Of a stretch of 64,000 bases of DNA, positions 3,940 to 24,300 are shown piece after piece. The stretch's first letter is position 1, and every line of letters begins with the position of its first letter. This DNA is from a virus. Its lineage: Duplodnaviria; Caudoviricetes. The notes under the pieces are model-generated. The model was given only the letters and a program-made list of their open reading frames with translations, did no database searches and was not told where the DNA came from. Location of the stretch: the IMG/VR virus record IMGVR_UViG_3300028591_000130, positions 1 to 64,000 of that record; one strand, written 5' to 3'. The position numbers and the translations under genes were made by a program.

Positions 3940-6900
3940 ATGGCGGCCACACCCGTTAACATTGTCGATAACGTATACCAAGCTGACAATGCCAGTGTTA
4001 TAGACCTTGGTGACGTATTACAAGACGATTCTTGGTATCAGCACCTTGATCCCGAGACTCAAGCTTATCTGTTACGTAATGTCATACAGTCAGAGAACGG
4101 ATCTGTTATTAATCTCGGTACAGCTGTTCTGAACAAGGCAGGTATCCAACGTGTCCTGGATAACACAGAACAAACCATTAAGGCTCTGGTTGCAAAAGAA
4201 GAAACACAAACTTACGAGGTTAAGAGAAAGAAAGAGAAGTTTAAACATAATCCCCATATTAGAGAAGGATACAAGAAGCTCGCGACACACGACTTCTTCA
4301 GCAAACTGACAAGCTATATTAGCGAAGACAATGAACTTTTTAAAAACACAAACAAGCCTGTAGAGATACCTTACGAGAATATACAAGGTTTTCAAATTCA
4401 CCAGACTACGAACCAGACCATACAGGCGTTAGCTAATATTGAAAAGCAAGAAGGTATGGTTGTAGGTTTTGACTTTGAAAGTACAGGAGGCGTTAAGCTG
4501 GGTGAAAAACAGATACCGAGAAAACTAACCGAGTTTACCTTTGTTAAAAGGAATATTTATGACGAATCTGATATTCCTGAAATTTTTAGTTCTATTGTTG
4601 GTTCAAGCGAAGAAGACGATCAGGAATATGAAGATATCATAAACAAAATTGAACGTGGACAAGAATTATCTTACGAAGAAAGAGTTACAGCAACGCGTTT
4701 GGCAAAAATAGGTGCGTCGTCACAACTTGACGGCGCTATTGCTTGGAATTCTACTGAAGCTCAACAATATGGTATTTTTACCTTTAATAAGTTTGTCGGT
4801 GAAAACGAAGTTGCTCTCAGAGATACACGAATGATGCGTAGAGGCAAGGACGTACAACGCAAGATCGGAGAAATCCAAAGAAGTTTACCGTTACAAGATA
4901 TCGAACTTGATCACAAAAAGTTTTCAGTTAGAGGTTGGGAAAAAAAGCTGTTAGAAGGTGTTGACGCCGTACTGCACGGAGGCAAAGGGAAAACTGCTCT
5001 TACAGCTGTAGGCCATAACACAAGAACATTTGATATCTCACTTCTAAACAGTCTTATGACTAACGGACAACTCTCTGAAGGCGCCCAAGAAGCAATGCGG
5101 TATCTCTTTAGAGACAAAAATGACAGTCAACAAAAATCAACAACAGCAAAAACTCTTAAAGATAAGGTTGATAAACAACTTAAAGAATTAAGTGATACAC
5201 TTAACAATGAAGATATCAGTAAGACTATACAAGATTATCACACAGAAGTAGATCGTCTTGTGACACAAGGAATTGAGGCAAAAGAAAGTGCAGACGTACA
5301 ACAATATGCACAGTACTTTCTTAACGTACAACAACAAAGAACACAACTTGAAAATGAACTACAACAGAGAACTACAGATTATAATAGCGCTGAACAAAGA
5401 TATCAAAATCTTAAAAACTCAGGTGTTGGCGATGACAGCGAAGAACTTAAAAAAGCTGCCTTTGAACGTGACGAAAAAAGAATCGCACGAGATAGCGTAA
5501 CTCGCCAGATAAAGTCACTGCAACAAGAAGTATTTAGTAAGAGCAGTGAGATATCATTTATCAATGACGCCATTACACATGAGAGAAACGTAATAGCACA
5601 ACAAACAAGAGCAGAGTTAAACAGCTACCAACAACAAAATAAGACACCGGAAGAAATAGCTGCTTTGCGAGAGCAACAAACACAAAAAGAAAGAGCTCTT
5701 ATTAATAGCTGGACAGTTTTTGATAACGCTACAAATGAAATGCGAAAAGTACAAGACAGAGAATACGAACAACAAGTTGATAACGTAAGTCTAAGCATAG
5801 AGAGAGATATACAAGCTACAGAAAATATGAACAAAGGTATTGAGGACCAACAAAAGACATTTCGAGATATCATTAAGTTTAACGAAGATGAAATTCGATC
5901 AAAAGGCTATGATCCGCAACAACGTCCTGACACAATTGCAGACGACGCTTTAAAAAGTGCTTACGATAACTTAGAAACCAGTAACGAAGCGTTACAGGCA
6001 AGTAAAGAACAGTTACAACAAAATAAGCTGGAGATAGACAGTAAAACAAAGTTACAAGATGAGTTGAAAAACACTTCAGATTACAAACAAAAGGCAGTCT
6101 TAATAGAAAGGCATAATCTTCAACGTCTTATCAACGCAGATAATAAAGTTATAACACAAGCAGAAAACTTTCTAACAAATGATAACGTCCAAGATAACTA
6201 TAAACAACAGTATGGCGCGGAAAGCTACAAACGTAAAACTAAACAAGAAGAGAGACGAAAACAAGAAGCACAAAACAGGATAGCTAATTATAAACAACGT
6301 ATAGACGCCTTAGACCAAGGTGCCTTACCTGAGCTTCATACAAAGATCAGTGACAGAAGAGATATTGTTACTAATCTTGCAAAACAACACACACAGTTAC
6401 CAAAGACTTTGGCAGACCAGATTAAAAGTATAACGACAAAAGGAATCGAAGATCTAATTAGCGGTTATTTTCAAGAAACGGTTAATAGTTTTCGTAAGCT
6501 TGAAAGAAAAGACTTCACTACAGATGAAGCTTTTGCTAAATTTCAAAACAGATTTGAAACCATAGACAATAGAATCAAGCAGGCTTCTCAAGGTGAAGAT
6601 ATCATTTACGAGACAAGACAAAGTATAGACGATATGATATCTGAAACATTATCTGATGATTCTGTTATTAATCAAGCGAGCCGTAAAGATATAAATGAAG
6701 CTGCAGTGGATTGGGAAGCAGTTACAGAAGAATACGACAAAATTATTGACGCTAGAGAACAAGGCAATGCAAAAGTTAAAAGTATACAAACAAAGTTACG
6801 CCAGCTGACTGCACAAGGTGACGTTATTGGTATGCCTGACGCTACATTGTTCAGAGATGAGTTTGGTAACGCGTCATTTAAGTATCACTTGGATACTTTG

Positions 6901-9900
6901 GCTGTGTTTAGGCGTTTTATGCCTGAAGATTTTTACGACGAAAGTGATATCGATCAAATGGGTCGTATGAATCTTACGTCAGGACAGCAAGAAGCTATAG
7001 TAAGACGTATGTCTGCAGCTGTAGATCCACAAACAGGTAAACGTAACTGGTCTATGTCTGTTTACGACGATCCCCGTAACGCAGGCGCAGCTCACGCTGC
7101 AACTACGGACACCTTATATAATCTCGAGTATGTTCTTAAAAGGGGTATGCTTGTTGAAACGTCGCCGCTAAGACAGGCGTTATCTTCTTTACAAGAACAA
7201 TCTGATATCGTGTTAAGAAATGACGGCTCTGAACTTTTTCTTGCAACGTCAAGGATAGATCATGAAGCTTACAGACTGATGACTTTTGCCAAGGATCCTT
7301 TAACAGAAACTTTCAGGTTCCCCGATAAGTATGCCGTAAGTTCTAAAGACGTTGAAAATAAAGTTCCAGGCAAGGTTCAAACAGAACTTGTAGGATCTCA
7401 AGGGATCCAGAAAGGTGTTACCTATCGCGTTAAAAGATTGTTTGAAGCTGCTACAGAAAAAGAATTTCACGATATTATGAAAGATATGTATCCTGATACT
7501 GATATCAGTAAACTAACTGTACTTGAGCTTGAAGCTTACGCGCCTAAACCTGATCCAAGGGGTTTGTCTGTCAGGTTAAGAACCCCTGTTTATTACGTAG
7601 GTACAAGACAAGACATAGCTAACGCTATGATGGATCATACCTTTTATATCGGTGACTTACAACGTAACGGTGAGATAGATACAATAAAGGTATCAGATTA
7701 TACAAAAAAACAGCTTGCAAAGCATACCTTTTCACCTGACGGAGTTATAAAGACAACGCCTTTTTCAGCACCTGATATCGTAAGAGAAGGTGTAAGGCGT
7801 GCAGAACAAGAAGCTGCTGCTCGTAAGATCAGGTATCATGACTATAAGGCAGATAAAAAGCTTCTGGATTTTTTGGAGTACGAAGAAGACAAACTTAAGG
7901 AGTTAACCAGCCAAACTACACAAGGTTCTCCTTCTGAAAGAGAAGCACAGATTAAGCTGTATCAAAGACTTTGGGAAAACTCTACGATCATAGCACAGCG
8001 GATCTTTAGAGGAGAAGCTGTTGATATTAACAGTGAAATGTATAAAAACAGTTATCAAAACTTCTTTGGCTTTTATAGTTTTGATGACGCACAAAAAGGT
8101 CACCTATTACCTGAGACACTGTCAGGACAACTTGGTCGCATTGACTGGGCACGCCAAAACAAAGCGACCATACAAGCTGCAGTTACTAAGGCAGAAGAAC
8201 TCGCAGGACCTAAGCAAACTAATCGTGCTGTAGTAAGCTATTACTACAGAAAGCTGATGCAAGGTATAGAAGACTACATAGAACAACAAGAACAAACAAA
8301 GAACAGCAGACGTTTGGGATGGGAACTTGACGGTCTTTACGGTTACGAATTTGAAAACCGTTTTGAGATTAACCTAAAGGGATTTGGTGATATCACAAAG
8401 GATACTATAGTTACTCTTAACCTTAACTCTGAACCTCATACGATATCACACAACATAATGAATGCCCTTGCACAAAATGGTTTTAGAGATAACTATAAAC
8501 CTGAAGAGAGAACATTGTTTTTAAAACAAGTACAAAGATTTTTGTACAATACAAGACAGATAGGGTACTTTACTGACGGTCTGTCAAAACGTAGTAGAGA
8601 GACGTGGATTCAAGAAGTTAGGGACGGAACACGACAGTATCCTGACGCCTTCATACAAGAATTTAATTCTCAGTATCCCTTAGATGAACAAGAAAGACCT
8701 ATGAACCCCTTTAGGATTATGGAACAAGATACCGAAGTTACTGCTGCTCACAAGTTGGTACAAACGCTTAAAAACAAAAGAGCAGTAAATCCTTTCTCCG
8801 GACATATTACAGGGACTTATCGTCATACGACGTCAGGATGGACAGAGACTTTTACAAATGCCGATGAAACAAAAAAGGTTTTAGATACTATTGGTAAAAC
8901 TATTCCTACAGTTACAGGTGTTTTTTCTGAAAAAGAAAAAGATATCGAAACTAAGGTTAACGAAGTTATTGATGACGTCGTTGACAACGTTTTAATGCTC
9001 AAAGACGACAGAATATCAAATGAAGTTTTAGAAGGTGCAGGTTATACAGCTCAAGAGATCACAACTCTCAGATCAGTCAGAAGTCTTCACAAGCAAGGTT
9101 TACAGCGTTACACAAAACAGTTATTTGGTCTGATAGCGCACATGGGCGGTACGATAACTTGGGACTCACATTCAAGATCGGTTATGGCTAAGATAGGTGA
9201 CAAGATGATCGATCTTGCCATACCTACAGAGCGCTTTATCGGTGGACAGTTACAATATCAGGTAGGCGGCAGTTTGCTTTCAATGCCGGTAGGTATCTTC
9301 GATCTTAAGGACGGTTACGGTGAAAGAACCGAACTTAAGATGACAAGCTTGATAGAAAAAGCCATTGCTACTCAAGAAGGCCTTATCAAGTGGCACAAGG
9401 AACAATTTGCCGAAGGTGAAGGCGACGTTTTGTATCACCTTAGTAAAACTTTAACCGGCCTTGGCACAACCTTACGAACTGCACCCATAGTTAAGGATGT
9501 AGGCATAACGTCACGCAGTAACCAGTTTAGGGTAGAGTATAAAGATATCTTTAAAAATATTCCTGCTTTGCTTGGAAGTAACGTGCCTGATATCGACACT
9601 TGGAACACAGACGAAGGCTATAAGCAAGTTATAAGAGACTTGGCAACCGGCGTACAAGAGTATGAGCCTGATCACCCTGCTTACTCTCACTTCACTGCGC
9701 TTCAGGCTAATCTTGACAGACTGCTCATTACGACAAGAGAAGCAGGAATTGTAACAAAAGCTGACTACAATAATATTTTACAAAGTTTTATTCCTAACGT
9801 TAAGATGGCAGATCACCTTGCAGGTATAGCAACTTACCATGGTGACTGGTATAACCAGTTTGTTCAACAAAGAAGAAACCCCGCTAACGTAGAAGACGCT

Positions 9901-12900
9901 GCACAACTTAACGCCAAAAAGATATCGGACTATATTCGGCAAGCAGAAGATTTGCCTGACGAGTTTGGCGCACTACAAGATATCTACATAGGCAAGGGAT
10001 CTACTAACTTGTCAGTGTGGAAACAAGCTACTTACGGCAGTGTTAAACAGCAAGACGGTACTTACAGCAAGCGTCTTGATACCCATATTCAAGCTAACGT
10101 ACTGCATACGTCACCCATTGGTCTTAACGCACTTATAACGGCTAATCTTGCAGATACTGCAACAAAACTGACTACGGGGCAAAAATCGTCAATGACTAAC
10201 GAAGCCTTCTTGGCAAGCACGGGATTATTAACAACTGCTATGCCTGACGAAGGAGTAATGTTTGTTCACGGACAAGTTTTTGACAGAGCGTTTAACGAAC
10301 GCGATACCTTACAAAAGATTAACGTTAAAAAGGTACTTGATATCAACGAAGGTCACTTGCTTGACCTGCCGCAAAAAGTTGCTGCGATGTTCTCTTACGA
10401 TGAACAGAAAGGCTTCTCTTACGGTAAGGGTACCTTTATCCAAGACAGTGATATTTTTGCTCACATAGCAGGATACAGTGGTGTACCTTACGGCAAGAAA
10501 GCCAAGTATGAAGGTATTTTTAAGCTTGGTGTTTTTGATCTTGCTACAGGGCATCTTGTAGAAGAAGATACAATAACTCAGATCATAAAAGAGAGTAAAG
10601 ACCTGATTGACAGAGATAACGCTACTACAGCAGAGCGTTCACAAAGAATCGTTGATCTGTTAAGCCAAAAATATAACGTTTCTTACTATATCCAAACAGA
10701 GAGAGCCAATCCTTTGTTTAAGGCTTCAGAAATGGCTGAGAAGGGCATGACCCGTGCCCTTATTCTTAACACAGGTGAAGCTGACACAAGAGTAAGAAAC
10801 GTAATGCAGAATCTTGGCTTCTACGGAGGTAACTACACTGCGCAAGAAGCTGTTTGGGAAGAAGAACAAGGCTCGCCTAACAAACGTCTTGTACAAAAAC
10901 AGGTTACCCGTACTCTTGGTAAGGTTGACGCCCTTGATATCAAAATGATTGACGCACTCAAGGAAGGCGACCTTGGTGCCTTTGGTGTTGCAGCTAAAGG
11001 CAGATATCAGTTACTGCACGGTGAAAAACTTACAGATGATGCATTGTTTAAGACGATAGGACAAGAATTTGGTATTGACACTACAACAACAGAAGGAAAG
11101 AGTGAAGCCGCAAAAACACTAAGAGAAGCTATTATCCAAGAACGTTACGCACCCAGTAAGGTAATGGCTACTGTTTTACAACAAGCTGGTATCTACGGTA
11201 AAGACGAGTCATTTCACTTTATCTCTAATCATATAGCTAACGTTATTAAACACGGTGATATCAGTAATTATCGTTACCTGATAGACGAATGGGTCTTTAG
11301 AGAAAAAAAAGGAACTCTCAAAGGTGGTACTTCTGCCGCTGAACTCGTTAAGAAATGGTTACTCAGAGATGAAAAAGGACAAGAATACAAAGGTGATATC
11401 AATCTTGAAGATGCTACTCTTATTCTGTCAAGGCAACCAGGTAGTGTTAATATTAATCTTCAAGAGTACAGACAAGCATTGTTAGAAAGCGGCATTGTAG
11501 ATCTTACAAAGAAAGGAAAACAGTTATCTGCCGCTGATCAACAAGCAGCTGCACAAGCTTACATAGATACAGGAAGTCTTGAAAGCGGTGCTTACGGCTT
11601 TAGCAACCAAACCACAAGAGACTTTATGGTTAAAGACGGAATTTCTCAGATGATGAAAGGTTCTGAAGGCGGTTCCGGTAATTTCTCTTTCCTTTATGAG
11701 AAGTCACGTGGTGAGTTTACGAAGATGCGCCATTACTGGGATTGGCAAAAAGAAAGTGATGACGCTGTTCGTTTTAACCAACGTGCCATAACCGCACTTA
11801 GCAATGTCAGAGCAGGACTAAAGAATAAACTTGATATCGAAAATTTCTACAAGGAAAGAGAAAAAGTTTACGGTAAAGACAGTGTTAAGGCAGGTAACAC
11901 CAAGATATATGATACCTACATTAAGGGTCTTGAGAACGGTGAAATAGTACCTACAGCAGCTATCGATCAGATCTATCGTAATATGTTTAACAGGCAAGGT
12001 GGCGGTGAAAAGCTTGCAGGCTTTATCAAGGATACAGGACAAGGTCTTGAATGGAGTATTGATCAACCTGCAGTCGAAAGATTTGTTAAGCGTTATAACG
12101 TAGGTAATGGTGACGTCCAAAAAGGCATTAACATTATGACGTCAATTCTTGGCAGAATGCACCAAGACGGCATAGGTGACAGAAGCATAACTACAATTAA
12201 CGAAGCCGGTGCGTTAAATCTTTGGAAAGCTTTTTCTGCTACTGCAGCTAACGCCATTAATGAAGGTACTATCGATGTGTCTACGAGTCCAGCTGAAGCC
12301 GAACATCTTGGCTTTAAAACTATCAAACTTGAAGATCTTATGGCCGGTCGTTTTGGTGCCGGTAACTTTGAAGAGTCACTATATGGTCATAACTGGCTTA
12401 TTGATCTTGGAGATCATAGTGCTTTTGGTAACAGTTTATGGCGTAACGCAGGTCCCGGTCATAAGAGCGGAAGATATATTGCGATATCAGCAAATCACGT
12501 TGAAGAACCGGGTGCTTATCGTGAAGCTATTGTTGATAAACCTCAAGCACAGGTAGCAGGCTTACAAGATGCTATCGACAGATATCTTCTCGCGTCAAGT
12601 GAAGGAGCAACAGACAGCGAAAGACAAAAACTTTTCGGTAAGATAACAGATAAGGTACAGAAAATCAGAATGACACAACATGACGTCTGGGCAGGTAAAA
12701 AAGGTATCATGGATGAAGCTACCCGTGCCTGGATGCATGACGCACAGCGCGCTACTGCAAAAGGTATGATGCTACTTGGTACTGAAAATGTAGAGGCCGC
12801 ACTTGGTCATGCACACCAGATTGATAACTTAAAAGAATTGATATCTCTTGCAAAAGAAAGAGAAGCTGATATCAGCAAACTTAGTATTAACGGATTTAAC

Positions 12901-15279
12901 CTTGTAGAAGAAGCAAGCAAAGGTAAACTCGCGCATCAGTTTAGCTACAGTATTCTGTCTCTTGAGAGAATGAATAAGATTTATGATACCGGTTTTGCTG
13001 AGATAGGCGATACTCTTATTAACGCAGGTATAGACAAAGGCACTGTTGACGGCCTGATATCACAAATGTCAGGTATAACAAAAGAGATAGCACAAACGGA
13101 AGGTGTTGAAGGAATATCGGCTCGTGAACCGTTACAGTATTACGGTTCTGTTACCCAAAGAAAAGTTTTTTTCAACTCTCTTGCAAGCGGTAATGAAGCT
13201 ATCGGTGACTTTGTGAGTGCGCAAATGCGCAAGGAAGACTATGACTCTGACGCTGTAACTAACGCTTTACACAAGGAACAAGCCGAACTTGCCATTACTC
13301 AGAATGGTGTTACCAAAAGAGTTAATATCGAAGTTGACAGTGCAATGTTGTCTGCTCTTAATAAGATGAAGCCTGCTGAAGGCATACAAATGTCGGTTAA
13401 GCTTCTTGACGAAGGTGCAGCCAAACGTTTTGAGAATTACAAGGCTTCACAATTCTTTCTTGGTGCAGGTGAAGCACAAAGATATCGCACGGTGCAAGAT
13501 TTCTCAAGCCAAGATTTCAAGTTTGACTTTAACTCTTTGTCTGCTGAACACTTAGCTGAAAAGATTGCACCTTATGACTCTCAGTTGTCTCGTGACGTCT
13601 TGTCTACAGTTCAAATGACTCACGGACAGAGAGTAGACTTTGGCAGTGATGATCGATTTAAAGGATTCATGAAACAATTCTATCAAGATATGGTTAAAGA
13701 AGCTTCTCTCGATCAAAAAACCTTTGGTAGAGACTTTATCTTTGCAAGCGGCGAAACACAACGGATAAGAATGCTTGAATATCTTGAGAAGAACGCTGCA
13801 GCAGCAGGTGCTTTGCTGGGCGGAGGCGATAATCAAGATCTTGACTTTGCCTATGACGTGCTAAAGTTTTCCATGCATGACGCAAGCTTGGTAGGTGACA
13901 TGGTTTCAAGCGCAGGTAGAGTGCCTACAGGCAGGATAAACAGAATCACCCAAAATGTTTATGATATTATGCATGAGGTATTGCATAACGAAGATGCAGG
14001 ACAATACTTTGAAAAAGACATAGGCTTGCTGACGAATCAAATAGGTTTGGTTAACCTTGCTGTGCAAGAAGGATTCTTGTCACCTAAGAACATAGGCGCT
14101 CAAGCAGGTACTACGATATCAGGTGAAACTTTAAGAACGCAACTCATTCCTCGTCTTGAAAGTGCGTTTACTGCTGCTCTCAGTGTGAAAGATAACGCTA
14201 CTGACGAGCAAAGGGCTGTTATTAAAAAGGATCTGTCCGATATTTTACAAGAAATAGTCATACCGAGAGCAAGTAACGAACTTGCAAGGGATCCTGCGTT
14301 ACCTACTTTGCTTGAACTTTTACAAGACGAGAATAAGGCAAAGACCTACGGTGTCAACTATAAAGCACTTGTAAAAGATACTCTTGGCAGTTTACCTGAA
14401 GACGATCCACGAGCTTTGACACAAACAGCTAAAAAAGCTATAGGCACTTACGTTGACTTTTTGGTAGACAATGTAGGGTGGCACGGTAACAAGAGAAATC
14501 TTTTCTCATTTAGCGTATCTCACGGTTCAGGCAATCCAAAGAATCTGCCTACTATTTTGCCAAAAGAAAGTAACCAAGCCGCTGTCCAGCTTAGGAACGT
14601 CATGGGTAACGTTATGTCTGACCTTGGTGTTAATGACGCATTGCTTTATACCGGCGGTAACGTAGGTTTTAACAGAAAAGTATCTGCAGCACAAGATCTT
14701 GATAACTTTGCAGATCGTACTGCGAAACAAAAACCCCTGCTTGATATTTCTGAGGTACCGAAAAAAAGAAATTCATTGCTTAGAACTAAACTTAGAGCAA
14801 TGAAAACGGGAGGCATAACAGGCACTCTTGTTAATATAGCAGGAGGACTTATGATATCAGGCTTTGCCAACAATCCGTCACAAAAGCAAGAGCCGCCCAG
14901 ATATCAACAAGGCGGAAGACAACTTCCTACAGCAGAAGGTTCAGCTTTTGGTAACGCACCTATTCCTGCACAGAGTTTGCCTGAACCTGCTACAGGGTTA
15001 GCAGCAGGCGGTGCAGCAGCTTACGCGTCACAGTATCCAATCTCTTTTGCTGACAGTAATCTTAACGTTATGAGAGGCGGTCCTGCTAAGGCTTACACTA
15101 TTAATATATCGGGAGTCAGTCCTAGAGGACAACAGGCAGCAGTAGAAGCTATCCAAAGTTCCATAGGAGGTCCTGTGCCGCAAAATTCTTCCATTAACGT
15201 TGCTATCAACAATAACTATAAAGATACTTTGTCACAAGCACAGGTAGGACGTATGGTTCAAACTGCTATGGGTTTTTGA
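3940..15279 (+). CDS. Giant 3779-aa protein: putative single-chain two-barrel DNA-dependent RNA polymerase (beta+beta'-like, probably virion-packaged) with an N-terminal DEDDh 3'-5' exonuclease domain
   Basis: Exonuclease motifs: GFDFESTG, GHNTRTFD, HLDTL, HAATTD. Collinear RNAP-like motifs: PDEGVMFV, KGTFIQDSDIF, FKASEMAEKG, GKKG..DAQR, REP, EDYDSD, GRVPTGRINR, QEGFLSPK. Confidence 0.72.
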   Translation: MAATPVNIVDNVYQADNASVIDLGDVLQDDSWYQHLDPETQAYLLRNVIQSENGSVINLGTAVLNKAGIQRVLDNTEQTIKALVAKEETQTYEVKRKKEKFKHNPHIREGYKKLATHDFFSKLTSYISEDNELFKNTNKPVEIPYENIQGFQIHQTTNQTIQALANIEKQEGMVVGFDFESTGGVKLGEKQIPRKLTEFTFVKRNIYDESDIPEIFSSIVGSSEEDDQEYEDIINKIERGQELSYEERVTATRLAKIGASSQLDGAIAWNSTEAQQYGIFTFNKFVGENEVALRDTRMMRRGKDVQRKIGEIQRSLPLQDIELDHKKFSVRGWEKKLLEGVDAVLHGGKGKTALTAVGHNTRTFDISLLNSLMTNGQLSEGAQEAMRYLFRDKNDSQQKSTTAKTLKDKVDKQLKELSDTLNNEDISKTIQDYHTEVDRLVTQGIEAKESADVQQYAQYFLNVQQQRTQLENELQQRTTDYNSAEQRYQNLKNSGVGDDSEELKKAAFERDEKRIARDSVTRQIKSLQQEVFSKSSEISFINDAITHERNVIAQQTRAELNSYQQQNKTPEEIAALREQQTQKERALINSWTVFDNATNEMRKVQDREYEQQVDNVSLSIERDIQATENMNKGIEDQQKTFRDIIKFNEDEIRSKGYDPQQRPDTIADDALKSAYDNLETSNEALQASKEQLQQNKLEIDSKTKLQDELKNTSDYKQKAVLIERHNLQRLINADNKVITQAENFLTNDNVQDNYKQQYGAESYKRKTKQEERRKQEAQNRIANYKQRIDALDQGALPELHTKISDRRDIVTNLAKQHTQLPKTLADQIKSITTKGIEDLISGYFQETVNSFRKLERKDFTTDEAFAKFQNRFETIDNRIKQASQGEDIIYETRQSIDDMISETLSDDSVINQASRKDINEAAVDWEAVTEEYDKIIDAREQGNAKVKSIQTKLRQLTAQGDVIGMPDATLFRDEFGNASFKYHLDTLAVFRRFMPEDFYDESDIDQMGRMNLTSGQQEAIVRRMSAAVDPQTGKRNWSMSVYDDPRNAGAAHAATTDTLYNLEYVLKRGMLVETSPLRQALSSLQEQSDIVLRNDGSELFLATSRIDHEAYRLMTFAKDPLTETFRFPDKYAVSSKDVENKVPGKVQTELVGSQGIQKGVTYRVKRLFEAATEKEFHDIMKDMYPDTDISKLTVLELEAYAPKPDPRGLSVRLRTPVYYVGTRQDIANAMMDHTFYIGDLQRNGEIDTIKVSDYTKKQLAKHTFSPDGVIKTTPFSAPDIVREGVRRAEQEAAARKIRYHDYKADKKLLDFLEYEEDKLKELTSQTTQGSPSEREAQIKLYQRLWENSTIIAQRIFRGEAVDINSEMYKNSYQNFFGFYSFDDAQKGHLLPETLSGQLGRIDWARQNKATIQAAVTKAEELAGPKQTNRAVVSYYYRKLMQGIEDYIEQQEQTKNSRRLGWELDGLYGYEFENRFEINLKGFGDITKDTIVTLNLNSEPHTISHNIMNALAQNGFRDNYKPEERTLFLKQVQRFLYNTRQIGYFTDGLSKRSRETWIQEVRDGTRQYPDAFIQEFNSQYPLDEQERPMNPFRIMEQDTEVTAAHKLVQTLKNKRAVNPFSGHITGTYRHTTSGWTETFTNADETKKVLDTIGKTIPTVTGVFSEKEKDIETKVNEVIDDVVDNVLMLKDDRISNEVLEGAGYTAQEITTLRSVRSLHKQGLQRYTKQLFGLIAHMGGTITWDSHSRSVMAKIGDKMIDLAIPTERFIGGQLQYQVGGSLLSMPVGIFDLKDGYGERTELKMTSLIEKAIATQEGLIKWHKEQFAEGEGDVLYHLSKTLTGLGTTLRTAPIVKDVGITSRSNQFRVEYKDIFKNIPALLGSNVPDIDTWNTDEGYKQVIRDLATGVQEYEPDHPAYSHFTALQANLDRLLITTREAGIVTKADYNNILQSFIPNVKMADHLAGIATYHGDWYNQFVQQRRNPANVEDAAQLNAKKISDYIRQAEDLPDEFGALQDIYIGKGSTNLSVWKQATYGSVKQQDGTYSKRLDTHIQANVLHTSPIGLNALITANLADTATKLTTGQKSSMTNEAFLASTGLLTTAMPDEGVMFVHGQVFDRAFNERDTLQKINVKKVLDINEGHLLDLPQKVAAMFSYDEQKGFSYGKGTFIQDSDIFAHIAGYSGVPYGKKAKYEGIFKLGVFDLATGHLVEEDTITQIIKESKDLIDRDNATTAERSQRIVDLLSQKYNVSYYIQTERANPLFKASEMAEKGMTRALILNTGEADTRVRNVMQNLGFYGGNYTAQEAVWEEEQGSPNKRLVQKQVTRTLGKVDALDIKMIDALKEGDLGAFGVAAKGRYQLLHGEKLTDDALFKTIGQEFGIDTTTTEGKSEAAKTLREAIIQERYAPSKVMATVLQQAGIYGKDESFHFISNHIANVIKHGDISNYRYLIDEWVFREKKGTLKGGTSAAELVKKWLLRDEKGQEYKGDINLEDATLILSRQPGSVNINLQEYRQALLESGIVDLTKKGKQLSAADQQAAAQAYIDTGSLESGAYGFSNQTTRDFMVKDGISQMMKGSEGGSGNFSFLYEKSRGEFTKMRHYWDWQKESDDAVRFNQRAITALSNVRAGLKNKLDIENFYKEREKVYGKDSVKAGNTKIYDTYIKGLENGEIVPTAAIDQIYRNMFNRQGGGEKLAGFIKDTGQGLEWSIDQPAVERFVKRYNVGNGDVQKGINIMTSILGRMHQDGIGDRSITTINEAGALNLWKAFSATAANAINEGTIDVSTSPAEAEHLGFKTIKLEDLMAGRFGAGNFEESLYGHNWLIDLGDHSAFGNSLWRNAGPGHKSGRYIAISANHVEEPGAYREAIVDKPQAQVAGLQDAIDRYLLASSEGATDSERQKLFGKITDKVQKIRMTQHDVWAGKKGIMDEATRAWMHDAQRATAKGMMLLGTENVEAALGHAHQIDNLKELISLAKEREADISKLSINGFNLVEEASKGKLAHQFSYSILSLERMNKIYDTGFAEIGDTLINAGIDKGTVDGLISQMSGITKEIAQTEGVEGISAREPLQYYGSVTQRKVFFNSLASGNEAIGDFVSAQMRKEDYDSDAVTNALHKEQAELAITQNGVTKRVNIEVDSAMLSALNKMKPAEGIQMSVKLLDEGAAKRFENYKASQFFLGAGEAQRYRTVQDFSSQDFKFDFNSLSAEHLAEKIAPYDSQLSRDVLSTVQMTHGQRVDFGSDDRFKGFMKQFYQDMVKEASLDQKTFGRDFIFASGETQRIRMLEYLEKNAAAAGALLGGGDNQDLDFAYDVLKFSMHDASLVGDMVSSAGRVPTGRINRITQNVYDIMHEVLHNEDAGQYFEKDIGLLTNQIGLVNLAVQEGFLSPKNIGAQAGTTISGETLRTQLIPRLESAFTAALSVKDNATDEQRAVIKKDLSDILQEIVIPRASNELARDPALPTLLELLQDENKAKTYGVNYKALVKDTLGSLPEDDPRALTQTAKKAIGTYVDFLVDNVGWHGNKRNLFSFSVSHGSGNPKNLPTILPKESNQAAVQLRNVMGNVMSDLGVNDALLYTGGNVGFNRKVSAAQDLDNFADRTAKQKPLLDISEVPKKRNSLLRTKLRAMKTGGITGTLVNIAGGLMISGFANNPSQKQEPPRYQQGGRQLPTAEGSAFGNAPIPAQSLPEPATGLAAGGAAAYASQYPISFADSNLNVMRGGPAKAYTINISGVSPRGQQAAVEAIQSSIGGPVPQNSSINVAINNNYKDTLSQAQVGRMVQTAMGF

Positions 15280-15360: not shown

Positions 15361-18300
15361 ATGGCTACCCAAACAACAGGCATTGGTACAAGTCAAGGTG
15401 CACAAACTGTTGTGTCAATAGAACAAGTGATATCACGAATAACTAACGGTACAGCAACTTCTAATGACGAATATACTTACAGACAGTGGCTACAGCAACA
15501 AGTTAAAGAAGGTAAGGCTGATTATGACAAAGATAAAGAGATTTACACTTTTAAAGATTCTGACTGGTCTGTGTCATATTCTAAGGATACTTATCAAAGA
15601 TTTATTAAAGGTGAAAAGTTAAGTGACGCACTCAAAGAACAGGTAGACAGTGGCGCAAAGCCTATGACTGCTGACGAATGCTATCAAGTTCTTACTGGCG
15701 GTACGTCAAATCGTTCCTTACTGGATAAAGCCTTGTCCTATTACGCAATGCACTATGACGAAGTTAACGCTGTTGACAACAATTCTCTAAGAGCACAAAA
15801 AGGCGATAGCGTTAAAGACATAGTTATGAAAGACGAATATATGAGATTACGGCTGGCTAAGCTTGCACAGATAGCCATATCTTACAATACAGGAATAAAT
15901 AAAATTAAAGCTACAGATCTTTACTCTAATTCTTTTCTAAAAGATTTTGGTACATTCGAAGATTCACAAAATGTCAGTGACGTTGATAGGACAGAAGAAA
16001 AGACCGCTAACGACATTGCTAAGGAAGTTCTTGGTAACTCTACTCTTAATCTGTCAGATCAAACTGACTTTAAACTTCCTGACATGGGCGATTACTACCT
16101 TGGTAACGTTGATACTACTTACCTTGATCTGATATCAGAACGTTACGAAAATAAAAAGGATGCTCACGCTGCTGCCTTTTACGCCGAAACTGCACCTGAG
16201 AAAACCTTGGGTTATAATGAAGATACCGATATCTATTTCTTAAAAGCTAAGGTCAATTTATCAGATAATGATATCAAAGATGGTTTTATGGGTACTGATT
16301 TTATAACTTTATTTGTAGATCAAGTCAGTGCAGCAGAAGGTGACGCTACTGCTGCACTGGAAAAACTGTCTGCCGATATTGCCAACAAAACTGCCGGTTA
16401 TCCTGCTATAGCAGGATCTTCTGCCGGTAATATGTTCGAGTTGCAATTAGTAGGCATATCGTCGCCCAAACCTGCAAGGTGGGCTACGGAAACTAACGTT
16501 GAAAAGAGTAGCATATCTTACAAGGGAATAAAAAAAAGCGACACTATTGAAACCTTCTTGTCAAACTCCTTTGTGATATCATTTCCCGATATGCTGGCTT
16601 TGCTTGAACAAAAAGGTAATGACAGTACTAATGACTTTTGTTTTATTTACGTTAACGGTAAATGGCACCAAGCTGAATTGATATCAGAGACTAACGGCAC
16701 GTGTGATTTCAGGTGGCTTATTGATCCCGGTTCTGAAACGGTCAGTACGATTAAACAAAAAGGAACAGAAAGTGTTGATAAAAGTTCTGACGTTATAGCT
16801 AATATGGCACTTGCACAAGGTATCTCTACTTTACGGGAATTAATAAACAGTGCAGGAGGTACAATTTATATTAGATTTGAAGGGGCCGGACTTAAGGAAG
16901 GTGGCAGTGTCAACTTTCCTGCAGCAATGTCCGGAGCACTCTCTGATATCACTGCCAAGTCACAACTATTAAGTATGACCGCTAACTCTTCTGATATCAC
17001 TGCAAGTGGCCTTAACCGTATTCACACAACCAGTAACAGAAGGTATTTAGGCGAAGTATTTATAAAAATGGACTCTCAGTATGGTAACGTTTTTATTAAT
17101 CTTGCCAAGTATATCTTAGGTACCATTGAAGATAACCCTGACGCTAACAAACTTTATCGTGACGAAACCGGCGAATACAAAATGACTGACTTCTACAAAA
17201 TGTCTGACGTTTATGAAGGCAAAAATAATCATAACTTTGTAACCCGAGATTACGATATTGATTCCAAGGTTTACGCTGACGCCTTCTTCGAGACTCTTGA
17301 TATCTTAGATGATCGCAGGGAAATTCAACAAGCGATTCACGGTGAAAATTGGGATAATCTTCACGAGTACAACGTTACCATAGGTGACGTTACCTTCTTT
17401 GTACCGCCTGTCAATATAAGAATGCAGACTCATACCCAGTCAGAACGTATGCAACTTTTGAGAGCAGCAGGTTCTGCTACAAAGACGGATCAACACATGA
17501 CCCGCGTTATTGCTATGGATATCTTCTTTAACGAAGAACGCGGTATTAACGGATATCAGTATACTACTACTTTGAATGACTCAGAAAAGACACCCGTCGT
17601 CTATTCTCTTAACGGGTTGAGAGCTTTGGTATCACAGTTTAAGTTTACACCGTTTCTTCCGATAACTAATACCTTTATCAACGAAACTCTCGGTATAGAA
17701 GCAGTAACTGTATCGTCACTGCAGATAACGTCAGTACACAACTATCCTAAGCTCATTCACGCGACCATAACAATGCTTGAGTTTGACTGGACTGTTTATA
17801 TGCCTGATATCTCACAGCTTAAGATAACCGCAGCTTATGGTGCCGCTATTTTGCAAGAAAAAAACTGGGAAGATCTTCAAGCTGCAGCTAACGCTGCTAC
17901 TGACGAAAACGGCAATGTTGTAACTAATGACGCTATCGAAGAAGCAGCGTCAGACCTTAAAAGAAACAGTAAGTATATTAACTGGTTTGAAAAGACTATT
18001 AACTGGAAGACATTTCGTTACTACTATCAAAGAGCTATAAGAAGAGGCGATCTTCTTAAAAATCTGCCCGTTGACTTTAACTCAGAAGAATATATTTATT
18101 ACACAAGTGGCGGTTTAACCTGTCTTGTTCCTATGGAATTTACCGAACCCAGGATCAAATTCTACATGGCTAATGAGGACTACCTTAAGGAACTGCTTAA
18201 GGCACGTTTTGAATATCTTAGCAAGACAGGTACTAAGGGACAGGAAATATCATTTTCTCCGGATCAGATCAAGTTCTTGGAAGCTCTTGACGAACTTAGA

Positions 18301-21300
18301 CAGAATTTGCTAGAACTGTCACAAAATGCAGAGTTCAGACAGTGTGTAGACAGCGCTAACGAGCTGATACATATGGCAGGTATATTCTCTGACGCTGACG
18401 ACCTTGTCGGCAACCTTCGTCCTGACTCTTTTTATAACAAAGGCTGTATAACCAACGGTATGGGGCTGCCACAAGAATGTGTTAACAGAGTCAACGCTTG
18501 TCTCGCAAGAATAGATCAAATTACTCAAGACGTAAGAACAAGACATAATAACTACTTTGAGTATGATCCCGAGTATTTCAGTATTATCAATAAAGATGGC
18601 ACTAAGGTATCTTTTGCTGTAGCTATAAGACTTAAACGCAGTGCTTTAACCGATACAGAGATGGGGTCTTTCAGACAAACTATAAAGAACTTTACCGGTA
18701 CCGATCCTTTTCAAGAACAAGGCAACTGGCAGGGATGGATAGATGACGCCATTGACAGAAGAAACAGTGAAACAATGGCAATACCTGATCACCTTGTTGA
18801 CTCTAACCAAGATCGTATCATAATTCCTATGTCTATTGGTGTTAAAAAGCAAGGATATATAACCGACGTTTACAAGATAGATCCCTACTCTAACTTTGAC
18901 TTGGACAGTAATACTGCGGGTATGAAACTGTTGTCACAAACGGATCATATTATTAATACTTACAAAGATAAAAAGGCGTCAGCAACAGGACACCCTGACG
19001 TTAACGCACTTATGAATTTAGTATACGATCCTTACGCTGTTACCGACGACAGTTCTGAAGGATTTTTAGTTGTTGACTGGCGCGCAACCTTAACTAATCA
19101 CCTTGCAAGGATACGAGTGATATCAAATGACAGTTACGCACCGCAATATCTTGGCGGTGAAGATACAGAGATTAATATAACTATTCGCACTCAGAATAAA
19201 CAAGCTGCTACAATGCTGACGGCTATTCCCAAACAGATATCAAGATTAACAAGAATGTATCACCTTGTAATGCCTTGTGTGCCGTTAAGAATAGAAAGTG
19301 AGTTTTCTAAGTTCTTGAGTGTTAACGACGTTACCTGTGAACAAAGTGTGATATCAACAGTAGCCAATCACCCCGGTCTTTACGAAGTTAATATGACCTT
19401 TATTTCTATGAACAGAACTATCAGAGAAAGGGAAGCAGCTACGAAGAAAGCTATCAATAACGCGGGCTGGAATTATTACGGTGATGATTCCCTAACTGAT
19501 TACGGTAAAGGACATCTCTATGGTGCTGCGCTAGGATCTGTAGCAGGTCTTTTGGGAGGTATAGCAGGTGGTGTAGGCGCACTTACTCTAAAAGGTGTAG
19601 GCGCTTTGCTTGCTACAGCAGCGGTAGGTGCTGCCGTAGCTGCTACAGGTGCTTGTCTTCTTGTAGGCATAGGACACGTTATTTCTGACGTTATGACATT
19701 AAACAGTACTGACTTGTCTCAAAGTTCTGCAGGTGACGGCACCATTAACAGACGAAAGTTTAGACATTACTTTGATATCAAAAACTCTCTTGCTGAAATG
19801 GATCTTTATCCTGACCTTGAACTTCCTATGATAGCAGAAATGGAAGCAGCAGGTTTTTATTACACAAGGTATAAATTTCAGGATAATCGTCTTTACGTTG
19901 ATCCCGACTTTTACTTTATCTATCCGGTCAAGCTTACCAGTAATATTTACCGTGAGCTTGCTATTCACGGTATGGAAGGCGGAATAGGAGAAACTAAGCT
20001 AACTGACGTTACCGGTGCTTGTGTTACTGTCAAACCTGCACAAGGGTCTACTCTTCAAGCTACTGCGAGTAATAACACCTATAATAAACAAGCACAAACT
20101 GCAAGAGATATCAGACTTGGTGTTATTAAACTAAAGGAAGAATTGCGCAAAGACGGAGAAGAAAATATTAAACAAAACCCTAAGGTAGAGATGCCCTTTA
20201 TGGCTCTTGTTAATCTGACCATGGAACGTGACAGTTGGTCAGTTTGTGACAATATTCAAGGAATGTTTTTAGAAAAAAGATTCTTACAAGAAATAAAAAC
20301 TTACGAGAATACTAACGCTGCTGCTACAGCAGGTAACGTTAACGAAACTAGAGGGACAGGCAGTACTACCAATACTGACGCAGCTGATAAAGAGTCAGAA
20401 GGCGGTGAGGTAGTACAAACAGAAAATCAACAAAATAAACAAGTAGTTCATACAGAAGGAAGCTATATTTTTAATCAACAAGAAAAGGCTATTCAAGCAG
20501 CAGAAGAATTTTACAAGTGGTTATCTACAAAGACTATAGAACAAACCATTCCTAATATGGCAGTGTCAGCAGGTGTCTTTCTTGAAACCGGTCCTGTAAT
20601 TTCAAATAGTCAAGTATTTTCCATAATAAAAACTGCTGTGGTTGCTTGGTTGGGGTTATCTGAAGTTCAAGATTTTCTTTCTGCACTTTACGTTGATATC
20701 AATAATAAGTTTGTAGATCTTGTACAAAATATTGTTTGTGCTGCTGCTTGTGTGTCAGGAGCAAGAAAAGAGTTTTCAGGTGCAGAATCGTCAGATGACT
20801 GGAAGCCTGACTGTAATTTTGTAGGCGTTCAACTTGGCACAAGTCAAAACGCAGGAGGAAGCAATGAAGTACTTTGGCCTAAAGACAAGAGTAAGCAAAA
20901 AGAATGTTTTAACGTCATAGTTAAACATAGTCTTGAATTCAGCATATATCGTTTTAAAATGCTAACTGATCAAGAACTTTACGCTGCTATTTATAAGGGA
21001 GAAGAAGCTGCAATTGAAAAACCCTATACTGACAATATTGAAGAAGGTAACGTTAACTATAGTCATTTCTTGTTAGACCCCGGATATCGAACAGCTACAG
21101 TAGAACTTATCGAAGAATATAAAGGTAAGTGTATTACAAGTATGGCTTACGCTACCTACGCTTACTTAAGACTTCTCTTTTACTGGTTATGCCGCCTTGT
21201 TTATCTTAGAGTATTTCCTAACTTCTCTACCGATATTGCAAGATCTCACGCACAACACGAGATATCAGTACAAAATACTACAAAGTCATTACTGGGTGAG

Positions 21301-24300
21301 TCTAACGCTGAGGTTATGGTTAAAGGTACAGGTGATCGTCTTGTAAGCTTAAGAAAGCATATCGACTTTTTTAGCAAGAATATGCACACAGTTGACTCAG
21401 GAAAGATTTGGACAGCAGCTATTCTTACTTCGTCAGAAGGTGACGCCAGCATTTTGAAAGCAATAGAAGATCGCAATTATGACGCCCTTAACGCAATTAT
21501 AGAAACATGTGCTGCTCCCACAAGTAAATTTAGTCCTATCAATAATCAAGGTGCACTTACTATTCGAAAGATGACTCTTGCTCTCGTAGGTTTAGGAGTA
21601 ATGAGTAGAGAAACAGCAGGTTCTTCTCAAACAACTGCAGCTATACCAAGCAATCAAGACACTATTAATAAGTTATATCTTGAAGCTGCAGACGATCCTA
21701 CGACTTATATACCACACAGTTTTCATGATATGATAGTATCTGACGCAAGGGGACGTATGCTCCGTGCCTTTCCTACTTTCTTTATGACATTTATAGATGA
21801 AGGTAGAGAGATCGGCTTTTGGAAACTACACGACAACTTCTATAACGTTAACGCGATATCAAGCATTGAAGTAGTCAAAAGCAGAAAGCTGCCTGCAGAT
21901 ACTTGTATTATCACTATGTCTAACTTTTTTAACTCTTTTGCTACGGAAGATGAAGATTACATTAGGACTGTCATTGCACCTTTACACGATGCCTATAACT
22001 CGATATTTTCACCAAAGGAATATTTTCAAGAACAAGAAGTTGCGAGATCTATTAAGCCACCTGAACCTAAACTCAGACTAAGACCCGGTGCAAGATTACA
22101 CGTTAGAATGGGTTACGGCAATAACGCTGATATGTTACCTATAGTTTTTAACGGCGTTATAGCTGAAGTATCTTCAGAAGCCACTGTTCAAATAGTAGCA
22201 CAAGGTGACGGCATTGAACTTTTGAATCCCATTAATATAGACAAAGAAGCGCACAATCTTCCTAACGAAGATGATTTTGAGGGACATAGTTGGGCTACTA
22301 ACGCAATATCACCACTACAATTAGCTACAGCAATGTTTACTATTCACGGGGGGTTTCTTAATGAACAATTAAAGAAAAGATTAAAATTTAACTTAACCCC
22401 CAGAAATCCTTTTGGTATAGTTCATTTTGGTGATCCTGACTTTAAAAGTTTTTGCAAAACGGGAGAATGTTGTCAAAACCTTTACGAGATGACAACAAAG
22501 CCTATGTACGGTGGAAGCATTAATGACTTGTTCAGTAACAGCTACAACTTTAAGGATATCACAAGAATTACCTTTGACTTGTTTCAAAAAACGCCTTGGG
22601 ACGTTCTCAATATTTGTAAGAGTATATCACCTGACGCCAAACTTGCTGTAGTACCTTTTATGGTAAGAAGCACTGTCTTTATGGGTATGCCCCATTACTA
22701 TTACGCTTACGATTATTACATTGACGAAGATAACGTAGCTAAGGAGAAGAGAAAACCTTTTGAACAATGGCATATTTACACAGCAGAACAAGATATCATA
22801 GGTAATGGTGTAGTAGCTACAACACGTGACGTTAAAACTGTAGCCATGGGGCTTTACCAAATTTGTGAGACCTTTAACAGCAAGTCACAACAAAGAGTAG
22901 GCCCACTTTACGCTGACTTTGATATCTACAGTGATTGTCAAAGAACTATGGTTGTTGATACAAGCTTGTTAGGAAAAGGTCCGCCTTTTATCGGAACCAT
23001 AACTAATTATTTTTCTACATGGGGATGTGATCTTTTTAGCGGACAAGGCGGTATTGACGCACTTTTTGATGACACAGGTCCTGTAGCAAGCCATAAAAAA
23101 ATAGCTTGGCGTGCAACGGCGTCAAAGCTTAGAGAAAGCGTTATGGATATGTACGCAGGGGATCTTGTCGTTATAGGTGACGCAAGCGTTAAACCACAAG
23201 ACAGATTCTTTATGTCAGATAAGTATTCTTGTATGCACGGTCAATGTCTCGTTAAAGAGGTTGTACACAGACTGTCTGTAGAAAACGGTTTTACTACTAC
23301 GATATCACCTGACTGTATAGCTGTTGTTAACGACAAAGCTGAATTGTTAAAGTATGAAAGTATGAATAGGATAGGCGGCTTATGTGCTATGTCTGCAACT
23401 ACTGCTGAGGAACTTAACGACTCAACGTCATGGCTGTCTGTCGCTGCTCGTACTGTAGCTTATGCCGGCATAGGTCTTGCAACAACAGGAGCAGTAGGAC
23501 TTTTGACTACTCGTGCCATTAAACAAGCTGCTACTTTTATTATGCAACATAGCCCTATGTTTGCGACAACTACAGGTACTGTCCTTGGTAGTATGGGCAA
23601 GATAGTGCAAACCATAGGTAACTTTGTCAGCAGGGCACCCAGTATACTGGGAAGAGTAGGTACGTCAATAGCAGCAAGAGGTGCGTCAATGATGTTAGCC
23701 GGAGGAGCTGCCGGCGCAACAGGCGCAGGTGTCATAGCAGGCGGAATCCTTGGTACCATATCTCTACCTATCATAGCTGCAACTACAATAGCAAGTGCAC
23801 TTATAATGCCACTTCTTAACTCATGGGTAGCAGAACAACTCAGGAATTATAAGGTTATAACGATCTATCCAATTAAGAAGTTTGGTTACGCTTACACTGC
23901 AGGTTTCGAAGGTGCAAGGGGTACAGTTTACGGTTCACCTACTTGGGGTGACAGAGGCAGTTTTGGTGACGTACTTGACTATATGCAAGAAGAATATCCT
24001 ATTGTCAGCTCTGTACTTGGTTTCTTAGCCAGTGACGAAGTAGGCGATCTTGCAAAAAAGTACCAAAAGGATAACGCAATTATTGGTAGTGACGGAGAAC
24101 CTGTTGTTGCAGAGGAAGAATATAATAAAATGATGGCACACCTTGCAGGAGCACCTTCTTCTTACTTTTCCAACAGTTATCGATCCAACCAGATAGTACC
24201 AAGAGCAGGTACTTCTACCCCTGTTGCGTTTACTAACGCTTATAATCATTATAAAAAACTTGATACTAAAAATTGGAAAAACGATCTTGGCGATAACGTT

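Follow-up and report, generated by a model that had tools for sequence, protein, structure and literature searches.

To our knowledge, crAss-like gp66 and P23-45 gp96 are the only characterised families of cryptic virion two-barrel RNA polymerases (RNAPs) in phages, and each altered views on how phage infection starts and how RNAPs have diverged. Both gp66, studied in phage phi14:2, and gp96, from Thermus phage P23-45, are virion RNAPs for host-independent early transcription, and giant virion proteins with cryptic two-barrel RNAPs have precedent in them (bioRxiv 10.1101/2020.03.07.982082; PMC10770324). Here we describe a giant gene in a phage sequence of 64,000 nucleotides (nt), hereafter the window, which is the first 64 kb of the 104,760-bp IMG/VR record IMGVR_UViG_3300028591_000130 (CheckV completeness 45%). 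The gene (3940..15279, stop codon counted in; like all window features below, on the (+) strand) is a single uninterrupted frame encoding a protein of 3779 amino acids (aa; P0001), and an ENA contig of 354,821 bp carries an identical 3779-aa protein. A first-pass annotation, made from the sequence alone, had placed a cryptic RNAP, single-chain and two-barrel and with DxDSD in its catalytic loop, at 10200-14100, an interval that takes in the polymerase core but not the entire gene. Conservation among distant homologues and a predicted structure argue strongly for a polymerase fold of the two-barrel type in which the active site is intact.

The polymerase core: conservation and predicted fold

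A word-indexed search recovered 13 homologues of 3071-3789 aa, including full-length ones 99% and 88% identical to the query, and a profile of aa 2090-3289 run against 1.84 billion representative proteins returned 68 at E<=1e-3, amounting to about 68 clusters at 50% identity. The full-length members are all of 2485-3779 aa, come from metagenomes and bear no assigned name; several family members lie on contigs of 160-355 kb, and there is no conventional RNAP among the 68. Conservation was read from two alignments (A3 and A6) of 65-67 sequences, which share 17-20% identity with the query. In every full-length member a single DxD[S/G/A]D falls at the equivalent aligned column, near members carrying DYDSD, DFDSD or DNDSD and far members the canonical DFDGD, DYDGD, DLDGD or DADGD; position 3103 is Ser in 42 sequences, Gly in 23 and Ala in 2. 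Loss of the Asp triad in homologues had been named beforehand as grounds for abandoning the RNAP proposal, and those grounds fall away, since D3100, D3102 and D3104 are each found in 67/67 sequences. P3064, E2267 and K2268 are equally constant (67/67 each), and H1052 and H2438 complete the list of invariant residues. K2261 is present in 66/67 sequences of A3 and is invariant in A6, R3062 is Arg in 65/67 and Lys in the remainder, and K2189 is kept in 61/67 sequences of A3. At least 90% conserved in both alignments are E2104, G2164, G2192, G2279, E2401, R2402, R2615, N2774, K2920, G3055, R3062, D3133, G3331, E3377 and K3383. K2261, K2268, R3062 and K2920, to which the first-pass annotation had drawn attention, are therefore all invariant or nearly so.

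Every motif quoted in that annotation is present at the residues given there, as verified with a script. The predicted core opens with a beta-like double-psi beta-barrel region (DPBB-B; 10222..10929, aa 2095-2330), which is beta-rich in the model described below and carries E2104 (nt 10249-10251), K2189, K2261 (nt 10720-10722) and E2267-K2268 (nt 10738-10743). Its quoted motifs are PDEGVMFV (from aa 2102), KGTFIQDSDIFA (from aa 2163) and FKASEMAEKG (from aa 2260, including K2261 and K2268). D2103 had been picked as the acidic residue at the start of the first barrel, and the conserved acid turns out to be E2104. K2261 and K2268 are the candidates for the basic residues that would face the Asp triad from this barrel, and K2189 and K/R2195 are alternatives to them. 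Next comes a connector (10930..12267, aa 2331-2776), helical in the model and bearing E2401-R2402, H2438, R2615 and N2774. HFISNH, at aa 2426 within it, had been equated with the DIVLNP motif of the beta subunit, an equivalence that now appears doubtful: LILNTG (aa 2274-2279), right after K2268, fits better by eye. The nearby H2438 (11251-11253, motif K-H-x-D) is invariant in all 65-67 sequences and has no counterpart assigned in known RNAPs.

The beta'-like clamp core and the putative catalytic barrel (DPBB-A) follow at 12268..13476 (aa 2777-3179), with GKKG at aa 2919, R3062-E-P3064 at nt 13123-13131 and DYDSD at aa 3100-3104 (nt 13237-13251). The spacing from R3062 to D3100 is 38 aa, as first reported, and the Asn of NADFDGD, two residues ahead of the first Asp, is Lys here. 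Beyond the barrel lies a conserved region (13477..14319, aa 3180-3460) that includes SAGRVPTGRINR (from aa 3324), QEGFLSPK (from aa 3376) and the conserved residues G3331, E3377 and K3383; it contains a candidate bridge helix (3324-3335) and a candidate trigger loop (3376-3383).

The structure of aa 2090-3289 was predicted with AlphaFold2 from 32 diverse sequences and no templates (model residue n is protein residue n+2089). The model has a predicted local distance difference test score (pLDDT) of 77 and a predicted template modelling score (pTM) of 0.66; a run with 8 sequences reached a pLDDT of 50 and was unusable. Foldseek found 68 matches to the model in the PDB at E<=1e-3, and all matches listed are bacterial RNAP beta' chains with probabilities of 0.95-1.0, the best being 8dkc_D (E 1.6e-5). 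Among the matches listed, the template-free model retrieves RNAP beta' and Rpb1 almost exclusively. It also matches the single-chain two-barrel RNAPs QDE-1, P74 gp62 and P23-45 gp96, in alignments that extend from model residues 8-14 to about 1090-1184, so that the beta-rich domain at the N-terminus and the barrel with the Asp triad are superposed at the same time. Matches both to RNAP largest subunits and to single-chain two-barrel enzymes bear out the proposed cryptic single-chain RNAP with a DxDSD loop. The alignment to QDE-1 starts with QDE-1 residue 708 opposite model residue 14, and D709 of QDE-1, the DPBB1 ligand of cation B (PMC9508822), would therefore probably lie opposite E2104. In BFVD the model matched two viral proteins of great length at E 5e-9 and 7e-7, one of them annotated "minor tail protein"; lower down came pieces of jumbo-phage RNAPs and, at E 4e-3 to 0.1, crAss-like proteins. 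Two of the features by which the two-barrel superfamily is recognised are represented: DPBB-A has a conserved DxDxD loop, and DPBB-B lies upstream in the chain and is packed against DPBB-A in the model. A prediction of the two-barrel complex from the regions as separate chains scored 0.00, the partner's own fold being itself uncertain, and speaks neither for nor against the pairing of the barrels. The structural case has its limits: it is a single predicted model that ends at aa 3289, and no RNAP beta chain is among the structural matches listed.

Searches at the sequence level retrieved no polymerase. Pfam and PHROGs gave nothing relevant for P0001, with no RNAP family at E<=1, and Pfam likewise gave no RNAP family at E<=1 for 18 divergent family members; PF05183 (YonO and the RNA-dependent RNA polymerases, RdRPs, of eukaryotes) had no Pfam match in P0001 or in these 18, and PF00623 and PF00562 had none in a six-frame search of the record. 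There was no match in a phmmer search of P0001 against all PDB chains or in a tblastn search of the core and two distant members against 50,697 GenBank phages. Pattern scans of IMG/VR with the protein and the alignment led to no confirmed locus, and the ESM Atlas held no usable match for the polymerase core. Comparison of the family with gp96 residues 1-1200, Escherichia coli RpoB and RpoC, and gp99 of Bacillus phage 0305phi8-36 by hhalign was not significant, and local alignments fell on the Asp loop for gp96 and RpoC only. With gp96 (probability <2%, E 0.04-0.24), a gapless alignment of 55 columns placed R3062-x-P on R-N-P and DYDSD on DFDGD-779 at identical spacing, a weak match at E 0.04. 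In the 104.8-kb record we found no second polymerase paralogue, no other recognisable RNAP and no sigma factor. A search for a T7-type RNAP was blank too, but its control gave no signal either, so that this negative carries no information.

These null results invite the reading that the motifs are short matches that arose by chance in so long a protein. Over its 3779 residues DxDxD occurs once, as DYDSD, where 1.27 would be expected by chance at this length and an Asp content of 7.0%, and D.D[GSA]D also occurs in three other frames of the record, so that DYDSD alone is no evidence; no sequence search was significant against any RNAP either. The signal that rises above chance is, on our alignments and model, the conservation in 65-67 distant homologues together with the predicted fold. 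Coincidence would have to place the motif at one aligned column in every full-length member and also yield a template-free model that retrieves RNAP beta' and Rpb1, which makes this explanation hardly credible.

Exonuclease and other regions of the chain

Judged by its motifs, the N-terminus is a DEDDh (DnaQ-like) 3'-5' exonuclease, split in two by a long insertion. The first part (4357..5139, aa 140-400) contains ExoI (D178-x-E180, in DLETTGG) and ExoII (H359-N360...D365), and the second (6880..7119, aa 981-1060) contains ExoIII (H1052-x4-D1057), which aligns to the H-x4-D of exonucleases in the PDB. The three motifs occur in the order ExoI/ExoII/ExoIII, and among 65 sequences D178, E180, N360, D365 and D1057 are at least 90% conserved and H1052 is invariant. 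A family profile run against the PDB aligned on these motifs with the DEDDh exonuclease 9mrd_A (E 5e-5) and with ExoI (E 0.1). Single-sequence Pfam searches miss the domain, the best hit being DNA_pol_B_exo1 at E 0.002, below the cut-off, and a shallow exonuclease profile of 6 sequences gave no exonuclease match in the PDB. The first-pass annotation, sound on the polymerase core, had overlooked this domain as well as the precedent of P23-45 gp96.

The insertion (5140..6879, aa 401-980), about 580 aa long and lying between ExoII and ExoIII, is delimited by a BLAST gap and by its composition: EKQRD residues make up 43.5% of it and P+G 3.4%, and the alignment of P0001 with a 3207-aa homologue jumps over aa 394-978. 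It is restricted to the long members of the family (3555-3789 aa) and could be a length-adding coiled coil in the style of tape measures. Between the exonuclease and the polymerase core is a middle region (7120..10206, aa 1061-2089), defined by family-wide conservation, that has no match in Pfam, PHROG or the PDB; for aa 1060-2089 the ESM Atlas offered only a weak lead to LPD39 polyvalent-protein domains. Downstream of the core, a Kyte-Doolittle scan detected a sole hydrophobic Gly-rich segment (14809..14868, aa ~3624-3643), and the protein ends in a conserved 90-aa C-terminal domain (15007..15276, aa 3690-3779) in which Y3719, N3722, A3737 and N3753 are at least 90% conserved.

Genomic context and the tape-measure slot

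The giant gene is preceded in the window by a gene for a homologue of the virion structural protein gp145 of phage 0305phi8-36, represented by its C-terminal 575 aa (1..1728; BLASTP 3.9e-48 to gp145 and 1.4e-47 to CDS0026 of a Moorella phage), and is followed by one for a 3179-aa homologue of gp147, a baseplate hub/lysin protein (15361..24900; phrog_20474, E 2.7e-160; tblastn and BLASTP matches to gp147 and to CDS0032 of Moorella phage MTATph1). Farther downstream are genes for an SLT transglycosylase and for baseplate-like and tail-fibre proteins. In 8/8 loci examined the giant gene lies between gp145-like and gp147-like genes. Seven relatives show the order gp143/gp144 tail chaperone homologues, gp145-like gene, giant-family gene, gp147-like gene and a 120-aa gene in the position of 0305phi8-36 gp148 (P2 gpV-like). 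As this is the gp143 to gp148 order of 0305phi8-36, the giant family occupies the gp146 slot, which comes after the tail assembly chaperones and ahead of the baseplate hub, the position of a tape measure. Only the insertion at aa 401-980 resembles an extended charged helix, and the gp145-like or gp147-like neighbours could act as the tail ruler instead.

The record of 0305phi8-36 annotates gp146 as "hypothetical tape measure protein" and as a virion protein by mass spectrometry. In a targeted set of 32 sequences the family exonuclease profile matched gp146 (E 4e-4) and Moorella CDS0027 (E 4e-8), and the family C-terminal profile had a weak match in the corresponding part of the gp146 C-terminus (E 0.017). 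On visual inspection, the family's layout of hydrophobic segment, linker and small domain recurs in gp146 and in Moorella CDS0031. There is no DxDxD in gp146 and no detectable similarity to the polymerase. Because gp146 shares the exonuclease and the C-terminal layout and lacks the polymerase, the slot protein looks like an old exonuclease-bearing virion protein to which the polymerase module is additional in this lineage. The DEDDh-like domain of gp146 (L013 9845-17458), apparently unannotated, spans aa ~1200-1560 and contains LDIETTG. The slot gene of Moorella phage MTATph1 (CDS0027-CDS0031, L014 8946-16302) looks transposase-broken, with the exonuclease in CDS0027 and the C-terminal part in CDS0031.

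This setting bears on whether the protein is packaged at all. An active RNAP made in the cell and left out of the particle, with an incidental place in the tail module, would fit the facts that the family is known here from gene sequences alone and that 0305phi8-36 encodes its RNAP, gp99, in a gene apart, for which the record makes no mention of the virion. Such an enzyme is improbable given that the gp145-like and gp147-like flanks are fixed in 8/8 loci and the exonuclease and C-terminal module are common to the virion protein gp146; a late-module gene is also ill-placed for driving early or middle transcription from inside the cell. The opposite view, that the protein is a structural tail or ejection protein whose RNAP-like fold is a dead remnant used as a scaffold, draws on the tape-measure slot, the long charged insertion and the hydrophobic segment, all as in tape measures. 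We consider it very unlikely, because catalytic residues are conserved across sequences that are only 17-20% identical, the Asp triad, P3064 and E2267-K2268 absolutely and K2261 and R3062 nearly so, which would not be expected of a dead site.

Other features of the region deserve mention. The gp145-like, 3779-aa and gp147-like genes are three giant genes in succession, and between the first two lies a gene for an HSP90/HtpG homologue (1796-3766; PF00183, E 5e-117; HATPase_c_3 domain), which the 88%-identical relative (L002) shares and more distant loci lack. The gp145-like gene of that relative (L002 1-7936) appears as two calls, 996 + 1738 aa, and contains about 520 additional aa that match LAGLIDADG faintly and are possibly an intein or a homing endonuclease. 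The 3179-aa gp147-like protein has several long Gly/Ala-rich hydrophobic stretches, and its N-terminal ~2100 aa match gp147 in short patches only (BLAST). The record also encodes the alpha subunit of DNA polymerase III (Pol III alpha), a DnaB-like helicase and RecJ. Outside the window, at record 98900-100834 (-), it has a gene for a reverse transcriptase (RVT_1, E 3e-38) beside one for an M23 peptidase.

Proposed function and comparison with known polymerases

We propose that the giant protein, whose gene takes the tape-measure slot in a jumbo myophage akin to 0305phi8-36, becomes part of the virion, probably within or next to the tail lumen, as a chain consisting, from N to C terminus, of a split DEDDh exonuclease, a conserved region of about 1000 aa, the polymerase core, a hydrophobic segment and a small C-terminal domain. 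At infection the protein would leave the particle together with the DNA and transcribe the phage DNA by the two-metal mechanism that two-barrel RNAPs share, providing for host-independent early transcription. D3100, D3102 and D3104 would bind Mg and E2104 would help to bind the second metal, with K2261 and K2268 holding the RNA 3' end and the nucleoside triphosphate phosphates. Catalytic activity, template, product, packaging, ejection and timing are all parts of this scheme that we infer, and as an account of the whole chain, a virion-borne and ejected two-barrel RNAP that transcribes early genes seems to us reasonably probable, if clearly less secure than the fold itself. Packaging, ejection and a Bacillota jumbo myophage as the source had been suggested in the first-pass annotation, and may be correct in view of the synteny and the weak homology with 0305phi8-36 gp146.

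The active site could instead serve an active two-barrel polymerase with another job, be it an RdRP, a primase-like enzyme or a PolD-like DNA polymerase proofread by the DEDDh exonuclease. The co-conservation of exonuclease and polymerase catalytic residues in one chain and the Lys that replaces the Asn of NADFDGD before the first Asp are compatible with such a role, as is the structural match to QDE-1, which has both DNA- and RNA-templated activity (PMC9508822). Set against this, the best structural matches are transcription enzymes, with no PolD chain among the matches listed, and the phage, with Pol III alpha, a DnaB-like helicase and RecJ of its own, has no need of a second replicase. Nor is the exonuclease tied to the polymerase, for it also occurs in slot homologues that lack one (gp146 and Moorella CDS0027). 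Overall we think a different job unlikely, and transcription of early genes remains the function that we favour.

A more tentative extension, which we regard as possible rather than probable, is that the protein is an ejected nucleic-acid machine in which the exonuclease cooperates with a polymerase from a deep branch so far unrecognised, closer in structure to cellular beta/beta' than to QDE-1/YonO, and that the fusion of virion RNAPs to tail-lumen proteins is a general strategy that has evolved repeatedly, with P23-45 no mere oddity. Cooperation might consist in transcript proofreading or processing, or in clearance of the host's nucleic acid as transcription of the first phage genes proceeds on the entering DNA. 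If the main proposal is right, this is a third case, after gp66 and gp96, of phages that house a transcription enzyme of their own in a giant virion protein, and its architecture is new, an exonuclease and a polymerase in the tape-measure slot of a myophage. Enzymes of this kind escape both Pfam and searches for a DxDGD pattern. The family supplies concrete residues for mutation and a fragment for expression, and it may be of interest as a new single-chain RNA polymerase tool. A second look at gp146 of 0305phi8-36 is also warranted, since this "tape measure" seems to conceal an exonuclease as well.

Among known systems, gp146 resembles the giant protein in its slot, its DEDDh-like domain and its C-terminal layout, but it has 2537 aa and no polymerase module. 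The separate RNAP of the same phage, the YonO/RdRP-like gp99, shows no similarity to the giant family (hidden Markov model searches and hhalign placed nothing correctly), and a recently captured copy of this YonO-like gp99 was accordingly rejected as the origin of the polymerase. In comparison with the cellular beta and beta' subunits (Rpb2 and Rpb1), the giant protein is a single chain without a Pfam RNAP domain and has, relative to beta', Lys for Asn before the Asp triad and Ser for Gly within it. Its clamp region is, in the model, closer to beta'/Rpb1 than to QDE-1 of the QDE-1/YonO-type RNAPs. The phi14:2 protein gp66 (PDB 6VR4) is likewise a large, virion-type protein; its RNAP too is single-chain and two-barrel, and its motif (DFDxD) also has a residue other than Gly in fourth place. 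It is delivered with the DNA and transcribes early genes, the function that we propose by analogy for the giant protein. It differs in its 2180 aa, in coming from podophage-like Crassvirales of Bacteroidota and in being QDE-1-like, and 6VR4 is absent among the Foldseek matches listed. In P23-45 gp96, a virion RNAP fused to a tape measure (PDB 8H2M/8H2N; PMC10770324), the RNAP is N-terminal, so that the domain order is reversed here; we detected no homology with gp96, and the profile search of 1.84e9 proteins returned the giant family alone. Our literature search found no paper describing a giant exonuclease-polymerase family. By analogy, then, the giant protein resembles gp96 and gp66 in how it would work but does not belong to the gp96 family, nor probably to that of gp66: it has no sequence link to them, another domain order, a beta'/Rpb1-like clamp, a fused exonuclease and a myophage background. 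On the alignments and the model, we rate it as the representative of a third family of cryptic virion-type two-barrel RNAPs, known from metagenomes alone.

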